Under the pieces are notes generated by a model. The model was given only the letters and a program-made list of their open reading frames with translations, searched no databases and was not told the DNA's origin. From the NCBI GenBank assembly GCA_037917685.1, contig JAVCBU010000006.1:256001-320000 (forward strand): a DNA stretch of 64,000 nucleotides. Reading direction: 5' to 3'. The DNA comes from Thermoproteota archaeon (GTDB lineage Archaea > Korarchaeota > Korarchaeia > Korarchaeales > JAOZGB01). How positions within the stretch are numbered: position 1 is the first letter of the stretch; every line of letters begins with the position of its first letter. Shown here in pieces: positions 62,517 through 63,641 of this stretch. The position numbers were made by a program, and so were the translations under genes.

Positions 62517-63641
62517 ATGGATGAAGCACCCAATTCATGTAGGTTCATTCTTGAAACACAAAAGCCAAGCATGATTGAAAAATTAAGATCGATTTTCAAG
62601 ACCGGAATAGCTAGGGAATACAACCCGTCATGGGTTCTTGAAGAGGCTGATGAAAACAGAATTGCAGTAACATCAGATGCAGACCTTTTCAAACCCGAAT
62701 ATGGTGTTCAAAGGATGATAAATGAAATCCTAAGAAGGATAGCGCCTGTAGGCGGCGCTAGGCTTGTAGACGTCATACTTCCAAGGGAGATTTTATCATC
62801 TTTTAATGGTCCTCATCACGGGGTAGATGGTATCTCAAAAATCCTAGGGTATACCGGCCCGCCTATTGCTGTTCAAATATCTGACTGGAAGGGTTCCATA
62901 CCATCCCGTATCCTAAAATTGTTCTATGAAATCGCTAGTCAGGGGGTTGATATAGGTATAGATTGTACAATGGATCCAGGTAAGTTTCAGGCTATGGCTG
63001 AGATGTCAATAGACTACATTAACAGGGTTAGGTCTGAAACTGGGAGGAAAGTACTCTTCGCAGTGAATCTACCTTCCAACCCGACTAAAATGGTTGAGTG
63101 TGCGGAGGAAGCCGCTGGAATCGGTGCTACAGCAGTTAAAGTATCTGGTGGGCTTGAGATCCTAGACGTCTTAATCCAGATTTCGAACCTCAAAGTTGAA
63201 ATACCAATCTTAGCCGATTTTTCAGGCTATTCTTACATCTATAAGGCAGTGGCACCTAGCGTCATCGTTAAACTAGCGCGGCTTTCAGGTGCTGACATCA
63301 TATTCCTAGAAAGGAATACTGTAGAGACGGTGGGCGAGCAAGACTATAAGTTATGTTTTAAAACCGTGCAAGTTGAAAACGGGTTTAAGAAGTCTTACCT
63401 TGTCTTAGACGGCCCCATGAATCCGAGCATGGTTGAGTACTTGCTCAAAACATATAGAAGATATATAGTTCTCTCCACCTCAGAAGCTGTATTTAACCAC
63501 CCCGACGGGTATAGCAGCGGGGCTAAAGCATTGAGGCAAGCCGTAGATGCTGTCCTGAGAGGTGAGAGCGTCTTTGAGGCTGCCGAGGCTCACGATGAGC
63601 TTAGACGTGCTATAGAAGCGTGGGAGCATAGAAGCTTATAA
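62517..63641 (+). CDS. Catalytically degenerate RuBisCO large-subunit homolog (form III-like scaffold)
   Basis: RLVDVILP...[31 protein letters not shown] and [18 protein letters not shown]...ELRRAIEAW; KxK, KDDE, HxHR, SGG and GGG motifs are absent. Confidence 0.85.

Follow-up and report, generated by a model that had tools for sequence, protein, structure and literature searches.

We analysed a stretch of 64,000 nucleotides (the window) from a Thermoproteota archaeon of the Korarchaeota (lineage JAOZGB01; GenBank assembly GCA_037917685.1, contig JAVCBU010000006.1, positions 256,001 to 320,000), close to the end of which lies a gene for a 374-amino-acid (aa) protein resembling the large subunit of RuBisCO. 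This protein is probably a selected RuBisCO-derived pseudoenzyme that has kept the large-subunit fold and lost the residues for binding of ribulose-1,5-bisphosphate (RuBP), for carboxylation and for coordination of the metal. To our knowledge, the members of the RuBisCO superfamily studied so far are all enzymes centred on a carbamylated lysine and Mg2+, and all characterised RuBisCO-like proteins (RLPs) keep the K201/D203/E204 metal site (spinach numbering here and below). What appears to be new here is an RLP that lacks the metal site common to all characterised members, apparently the first candidate for a non-catalytic RuBisCO relative. The gene (62517..63641, plus strand) lies in a 1.81 Mb genome of 22 contigs that is 95% complete, and its G+C content of 0.41-0.46 is like that of its surroundings. 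As an earlier note made from the letters of this stretch had stated, the open reading frame is uninterrupted; it starts with ATG and overlaps by 6 nt the end of a convergent gene for ribose-1,5-bisphosphate isomerase (R15Pi).

Judged by profile scores, the homology of the 374-aa protein to RuBisCO is significant but weak. The Pfam family RuBisCO_large (PF00016) matched residues 160-369 only, with 49.8 bits against a cut-off of 30.1, and the Pfam search gave no match to RuBisCO_large_N or to any other N-terminal-domain family. Every NCBIfam match was far under its cut-off: the best was the MtnW enolase model (NF007095; 113.5 bits versus 409), the others being TIGR03332 (100.6 versus 513.6), the form III model (TIGR03326; 99.8 versus 497.45) and NF042437 (51.3 versus 700). 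The AlphaFold2 (AF2) model, however, was confident (pLDDT 87.2, pTM 0.89), and Foldseek aligned it with RLP and form III structures at TM 0.77-0.84 (E ~1e-23, probability 1.00; top structures 1ykw, 2zvi, 2oej, 2qyg and 4nas), bearing out the earlier proposal that the RuBisCO fold is kept. The modelled chain consists of a shortened N-terminal domain of ~75 aa, a full barrel and the C-terminal helices, so that at the level of the predicted fold the protein belongs to the RuBisCO large-subunit superfamily, with a shortened N-domain.

We located the columns of the catalytic residues via the motifs of the intact form III enzyme that this genome encodes, using HMMER alignments to form III RuBisCO of T. 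kodakarensis (3kdo/3a13) and to the G. kaustophilus enolase (2oek), and MAFFT alignments to the form III of the genome itself. At the carbamylation/metal site of the 374-aa protein, K201 is replaced by I, D203 by C, and E204 by T or a gap. H294/R295 are replaced by D/F (a gap in the HMMER alignment), H327 by F, K334 by E, S379 by D, G381 by P and G403/G404 by E/A. The residues that the N-domain contributes to the shared site, T65, W66 and N123, are replaced as well. K175 is replaced by S, and the surrounding KPK region is ambiguous, with the K of 'SDWK' standing at K177 by HMMER and the W by MAFFT; this lysine is not conserved, since an 84%-identical ortholog (P0002) has E there. Among 20 canonical positions, E60 and G380 are the only ones kept. 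The replacement of the catalytic motifs, which the earlier note had read from a manual alignment, is thus upheld by both programs, apart from the retained G380 and the ambiguous KPK region. The protein lacks what marks a bona fide form III enzyme (K201/D203/E204, the RuBP and catalytic residues, a TIGR03326 score over the cut-off) and what marks a characterised form IV RLP (the K201/D203/E204 Mg2+ site, an equivalog score over the cut-off). Membership in the MtnW, OiaX and form III equivalogs was rejected on scores and residues.

The gene is under purifying selection and is not decaying. A word-indexed search of 5.8 billion proteins returned the ortholog P0002, of equal length and with identical substitutions; the other matches were ordinary form III enzymes only, at 25-29% identity. 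Among 1.84 billion representatives, an exhaustive search with HMMER returned 508 matches at E<=0.001, of which 4 reached E<=1e-30. On two metagenome contigs (L052 and L053) the ortholog likewise stands between a metallophosphoesterase gene and a convergent R15Pi gene. Compared with L053 by the Nei-Gojobori method, ω (dN/dS) of the RuBisCO-like gene was 0.087 (bootstrap 0.057-0.123) at a dS of 1.05, and 0.024 over its C-terminal 90 codons; the R15Pi and metallophosphoesterase genes gave 0.024 and 0.082, respectively. Related genes in four other genera of the clade described below had ω of 0.05-0.20, and the reading frame was intact in every clade member seen. The region upstream is also conserved: of the 77 nt that precede the ATG, 4 differ from L052/L053 (5 of 91 aligned columns), while synonymous sites of the flanking genes are near saturation in the same comparison (pS 0.51-0.57). 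A functionless pseudogene or recently decayed RuBisCO copy would account for the loss of all catalytic residues, for a stem of 1.5-2.0 substitutions per site in the phylogeny and for the absence of the gene from some relatives. The intact frames, the low ω at a dS of ~1 and in the four genera, the conserved upstream region and the confident AF2 model nevertheless make it highly improbable, and we rejected it on dN/dS, in agreement with the earlier view that selection rather than decay is at work.

The protein is not an isolated case; it belongs to a Korarchaeota-wide clade whose members all lack the site. Korarchaeota homologs, two of them from Ca. Methanodesulfokora, matched the 374-aa protein at 25-37% identity with 100-173 bits, versus 88.6 bits for the genome's own form III enzyme, and the KPK, KDDE, HxHR and GGG motifs were absent from all of them. 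A profile built from 16 members found strong members in 12 of 43 species genomes of the phylum (438-558 bits) and, in one genus (g2), a divergent homolog of ~361 aa in 10 of 21 genomes (123-188 bits); the g2 homologs occupy the same syntenic slot and are nested within the clade in both trees described below. Scanning the genome contigs with the single 374-aa protein gave no confirmed match (0/80), and scanning them with the clade alignment gave 24 loci. Outside Korarchaeota, all 13 matches examined were RuBisCOs with K201, and 12 of these had the full KDDE. Among the genomes searched, the clade was thus found in Korarchaeota only, with the 374-aa protein as its most derived member. Two genomes have unusual loci. 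In one (G017), the clade member (L023 7873-9522(-)) is a frame of 549-564 aa with an N-terminal extension of ~190 aa in which no similarity was detected; the extension may result from a wrongly called start or from gene fusion. The other (G023, genus g6) has three RuBisCO-family genes, namely the dead clade member (G023:C8:169-1182(-)), an RLP-like gene of 440 aa at a distance of ~10 kb (G023:C8:11021-12199(+); PF00016 190.9 bits) and a true form III gene on another contig.

In the 18 clade sequences analysed, neither K201 (0/18) nor D203 (0/18) is ever kept. The mean entropy of the 20 pocket columns was 2.38 bits, versus 1.89 bits for the background, and only 4 of 5000 random column sets were as variable; in 24 rows of true RuBisCO, by contrast, the pocket is near-invariant (0.19 versus 1.66 bits). 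The charge of the pocket varies by subclade, from 1 K/R and 5 D/E in the 374-aa protein to as many as 4 K/R in others. The clade-invariant residues are instead framework glycines and prolines, together with H328-P-x-G331, G335, R340, D344, R348-G-E350 and W369 of the C-terminal part; G114 is clade-invariant too. Most of them are also invariant or common in true RuBisCO, for example those of the C-terminal HPxG...R...D, and therefore look structural. These patterns make it unlikely that the old pocket holds a conserved site for catalysis or ligand binding.

These data bear on the possibility that the protein is an enzyme with a new chemistry, which would use another set of residues and act on the product or substrate of R15Pi. 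The strong purifying selection would fit such an enzyme, and the clade has ten invariant polar residues (D145, E174, R177, R255, E307, H328, R340, D344, R348 and E350 in the numbering of the query) as well as an acidic residue in place of G403 in 12 of 18 members. The RLP gene, moreover, stands beside the isomerase gene wherever both exist. The RLPs of methionine salvage are enzymes that act after isomerases of the e2b2 family, to which R15Pi belongs, and the pairing of the clade with e2b2 genes recalls them. However, the canonical pocket is the more variable part and its charge differs between subclades, most of the invariant residues are shared with true RuBisCO, and the homolog persists in genus g2, where the isomerase was not found. 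We thus regard a new chemistry as unlikely; the earlier suggestion loses ground in particular for the old pocket, whose positions show the lowest conservation within the clade.

Trees were built with FastTree (154 rows) and with IQ-TREE under LG+C20 with posterior mean site frequencies (52 rows), and contained no labelled reference RLP clades. The Korarchaeota clade was monophyletic on both (support 98 and 97), with the metagenomic protein P0033 as its sister (support 100), and attached among form III lineages, outside the cluster of classical RLPs; the 374-aa protein and P0002 together had the longest stem. K201/D203/E204 was kept in 79 of the 112 non-RuBisCO representatives of the tree set. 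The clade profile scored alike against solved form III structures (185.7 and 182.0 bits) and the MtnW enolase (183.8 bits). Such a result might also come from an RLP of a known family (for example the MtnW/YkrW enolase or some other clade of form IV) that has simply diverged very far: MtnW is the best NCBIfam match, form III and the G. kaustophilus enolase share the place of best PDB match, and the approximately unbiased (AU) test does not reject a grouping of the clade with the classical RLPs (p 0.266). We consider this reading very unlikely, given MtnW and TIGR03332 scores that are a fraction of their cut-offs, the absence of K201, D203 and E204, and the position of the clade outside the classical RLP cluster on both trees. 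By scores and residues, the clade belongs to no characterised family, and it is presumably distinct from 'IV-Aful' and the other named RLP clades. Descent from form III is the best-supported, though tentative, reading. In 5 of 14 loci outside Korarchaeota, e2b2 is followed directly by an intact form III gene, suggesting that a gene in this position gave rise to the dead copy.

Elsewhere among the archaea, a form III-like protein of Brockarchaeota (L041 1471-2703(+)) reads KPE, KDGE and HAHG at the corresponding motifs, and two further proteins without K201 (P0078 and P0110) group with it (support 100, FastTree). This suggests a second, independent form III-like lineage that is partly or fully degenerate, and a repeated loss of the site in archaea.

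The convergent neighbour of the RuBisCO-like gene is, by its score, a true R15Pi: it matched TIGR00511 with 420.3 bits over a cut-off of 314.1 (G000:C6:319666-320577(-)), and was the only e2b2-family gene of the genome over that cut-off, the other three reaching 276.7, 213.9 and 179.4 bits. The full gene of 319 aa is complete in L003 (2140..3099). On a separate contig (G000:C14) the genome encodes an intact form III RuBisCO of 417 aa with all motifs, for which PF00016 gave 293.8 bits versus 43.7-49.8 for the 374-aa protein, so that a separate intact rbcL, asked after in the earlier note, does exist. The synteny likewise held beyond this genome: each of the 12 genomes that have a strong clade member (the window genome and 11 others, whose R15Pi is 59-65% identical to that of the window genome) has the RLP gene convergent with its only true R15Pi gene, and an intact form III gene lies elsewhere in all 12. 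In family f2, the pair is part of a conserved block, with TrmB, glycerate kinase and a Clp1-like kinase on the side of the RLP gene and crenactin, OGT, RtcA and RPA on the side of R15Pi. In the lineage of the window, the pair is kept although all flanking genes differ from those of f2, which is independent support for a link between the RLP and R15Pi. The overlap of the two genes is also found in L053, with TTATAG.

This arrangement raises the possibility, listed first in the earlier note, that the protein is a regulatory or structural, possibly inhibitory, subunit in mixed oligomers with true form III RuBisCO. RuBisCO large subunits are obligate dimers with active sites shared between subunits, and a dead partner could therefore modulate activity; the coexistence with intact form III in all genomes with strong members, the kept fold and the C-terminal helices as the most conserved part would all fit. 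Yet a selected homolog exists in g2 without form III (0/21), two genomes of genus g5 (G019 and G025) have form III and no homolog, and the N-domain is reduced, with T65, W66 and N123 replaced. We therefore give a form III subunit only a small chance. The idea of an obligate partner of form III or of R15Pi is weakened by the same two groups of genomes.

Several of these observations also weigh against our preferred reading of a selected pseudoenzyme, or against its tie to the pathway. As the f2 block is syntenic as a whole, the 11/11 count of RLP-R15Pi pairs outside the window genome reflects largely shared ancestry and not independent retention. Among 38 genomes of the order, form III (at least 275 bits) was found in 15 and as a partial gene in one more, true R15Pi over the cut-off in 14 and AMP phosphorylase over the cut-off in 16; in g2 none of the three was found (0/21 each), and the g2 homologs nonetheless evolve at ω of 0.095-0.14, like their neighbours. 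Conversely, G019 and G025 (82% and 87% complete) carry R15Pi, form III and AMP phosphorylase, with the RLP gene cleanly missing from its usual place between the Clp1-like and R15Pi genes. In some lineages, then, the pathway does without the RLP, and in others the RLP does without the pathway. The AU result, given above, leaves room for a common origin with classical RLPs, and a catalytic site may exist elsewhere on the fold.

The g2 loci have features of their own. In L054-L059 the R15Pi slot is empty, and the RLP gene overlaps by ~20 nt with a co-directional gene of ~247 aa (for example L055 8501-9244(+)), whose counterpart of 250-260 aa sits just beyond R15Pi in other genera. One g2 genome has a RuBisCO_large match of 30.6 bits (G014:C11:3672-3896) in a 44-aa frame with an internal TAG, which may be the relic of a lost form III gene.

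If the protein is a selected pseudoenzyme, its ancestor was most likely a copy of rbcL adjoining the R15Pi gene, as in other archaea, and carboxylation would now be carried out by the second, intact form III enzyme. The clade protein would act through its surfaces, in a structural, regulatory or binding role rather than by catalysis at the old site, because the old pocket changes fastest and the C-terminal helices slowest. In the window genome, this role is probably connected with the catabolism of nucleoside ribose (the pentose-bisphosphate pathway), because the window is dense in genes of nucleoside catabolism. A more specific proposal, which we hold tentatively and consider clearly less likely, is that the clade is the first non-catalytic branch of the RuBisCO superfamily, kept by Korarchaeota over hundreds of millions of years because it binds proteins and thereby regulates nucleotide-ribose catabolism or provides its scaffold, for instance as a 'poison' or modulatory partner of form III or R15Pi, with co-option independent of the pathway in one genus. 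A complex prediction for the 374-aa protein with R15Pi (score 0.00, mark 0.32) had no controls and is evidence neither way. A search of sequencing runs listed 2 DNA data sets, which may be the source, and none of RNA; this, too, counts for neither side.

Among the closest known systems are the form III RuBisCOs of archaea (for example T. kodakarensis, P. horikoshii and H. butylicus) that take part in the pentose-bisphosphate (AMP) pathway. The clade shares with them the fold (TM ~0.8), its best or joint-best sequence matches, the C-terminal HPxG...R...D and the genomic association with R15Pi. It differs from form III by its replaced catalytic and substrate-binding residues and its shorter N-terminal domain, and in that the gene is convergent with e2b2, not downstream of it, and coexists with a separate intact form III. 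With form IV RLPs (the MtnW/YkrW 2,3-diketo-5-methylthiopentyl-1-phosphate enolase, IV-Photo of C. tepidum and RLP2 of R. palustris), it would share a RuBisCO fold without carboxylase activity; in contrast to them, the clade keeps none of K201/D203/E204, and its scores with their models are far below the cut-offs. The nearest precedent is the phage 'form IV-like' RLPs with divergent key residues (Jaffe et al. 2018/2019, 10.1101/386292). Unlike these, the clade of Korarchaeota lies on the chromosome, is conserved by vertical descent and keeps its synteny with e2b2. The nearest neighbours of the 374-aa protein by ESM-Atlas features were short, mostly viral RuBisCO-like clusters (score 0.93), which we take as a lead only, and a scan of viral contigs with the clade profile confirmed none of 135 pattern matches as relatives. 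Two recent papers on Korarchaeota genomes count only form III-b rbcL genes that pass the thresholds (PMC12787533, PMC10667645), and a 2026 survey of the superfamily collapses RLPs into an outgroup (PMC13454268). In the literature searched, covered in part and including 10.1101/386292, PMC12787533, PMC10667645, 10.64898/2026.09.21.753380 and PMC13454268, we came across no account of a RuBisCO homolog from Korarchaeota that lacks these residues and is paired with e2b2; sequences of this kind may be present in supplementary trees and tables, for example in fig. S10/S11 of PMC12787533.

The features of the locus and its surroundings are collected in Table 1. The divergent intergenic region upstream of the RuBisCO-like gene contains a TATA-like box, TTATTATAAAAG, at 62484-62495, whose centre lies ~28 nt before the ATG; this distance suggests a leaderless mRNA, and the region a putative promoter. 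The metallophosphoesterase beyond it has an ortholog of 87% identity at the same position in L052/L053. Further upstream, the two AMP phosphorylase paralogs matched TIGR03327 with 616 and 623 bits, and one of their genes adjoins a phosphoglycerate kinase gene (15840-17090). Genes of nucleoside catabolism form a neighbourhood at 42340-47000 and 54121-61560. By analogy, its PfkB kinase may act in the pentose-bisphosphate pathway, as a kinase of ribose-1-phosphate or of nucleosides, and a glycerate kinase gene is also present in the window.

Table 1. Features of the window around and upstream of the RuBisCO-like gene (positions are those of the window)
Feature	Position	Strand	Basis or remark
AMP phosphorylase paralog 1	12948-14486	-	TIGR03327, cut-off 535
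AMP phosphorylase paralog 2	27143-28657	-	TIGR03327, cut-off 535
Carbamoyltransferase-like gene	42340-43386		
PNP/UDP-type nucleoside phosphorylase	43453-44292		
PfkB kinase	44272-45219		
Adenine deaminase	45235-46998		
PnrA/Bmp-type nucleoside ABC transporter	54121-59022		
Second carbamoyltransferase-like gene	59125-60168		
Hydantoinase/dihydropyrimidinase-like amidohydrolase	60196-61560		
Calcineurin-like metallophosphoesterase, 231 aa	61748..62443	-	Pfam Metallophos 56.3 bits
Divergent intergenic region, 73 nt	62444..62516	.	Between metallophosphoesterase and RuBisCO-like genes
RuBisCO-like gene	62517..63641	+	Open reading frame; Pfam/NCBIfam, PDB alignments, AF2 and Foldseek, dN/dS
Gene overlap, 6 nt	63636..63641	.	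Palindrome TTATAA, last sense codon and stop of both genes
R15Pi gene	63636..64000, beyond window end	-	TIGR00511, Pfam IF-2B

On another contig of the same genome (G000:C7, L002), a 137-aa C-terminal fragment of a classical RLP (1351-1764(+)) keeps SGG and GGA and resembles the full RLP of another genome (G040, L012). Directly before it lies a 120-aa N-terminal fragment of an ABC ATPase (L002 958-1320(+)), which resembles the gene at 57445-59022 of the window. The two look like a deletion remnant or a pair of pseudogenes.

For the family, one consequence concerns gene counts: counts of rbcL based on weak hidden Markov model matches in Korarchaeota may miscount carboxylases, and strict-threshold surveys, as in PMC12787533, miss the Korarchaeota clade altogether. 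If our reading is true, the RuBisCO scaffold would be reusable for something other than enolate chemistry, and the clade would offer a concrete and testable entry point to the organisation or regulation of the pentose-bisphosphate pathway in archaea.

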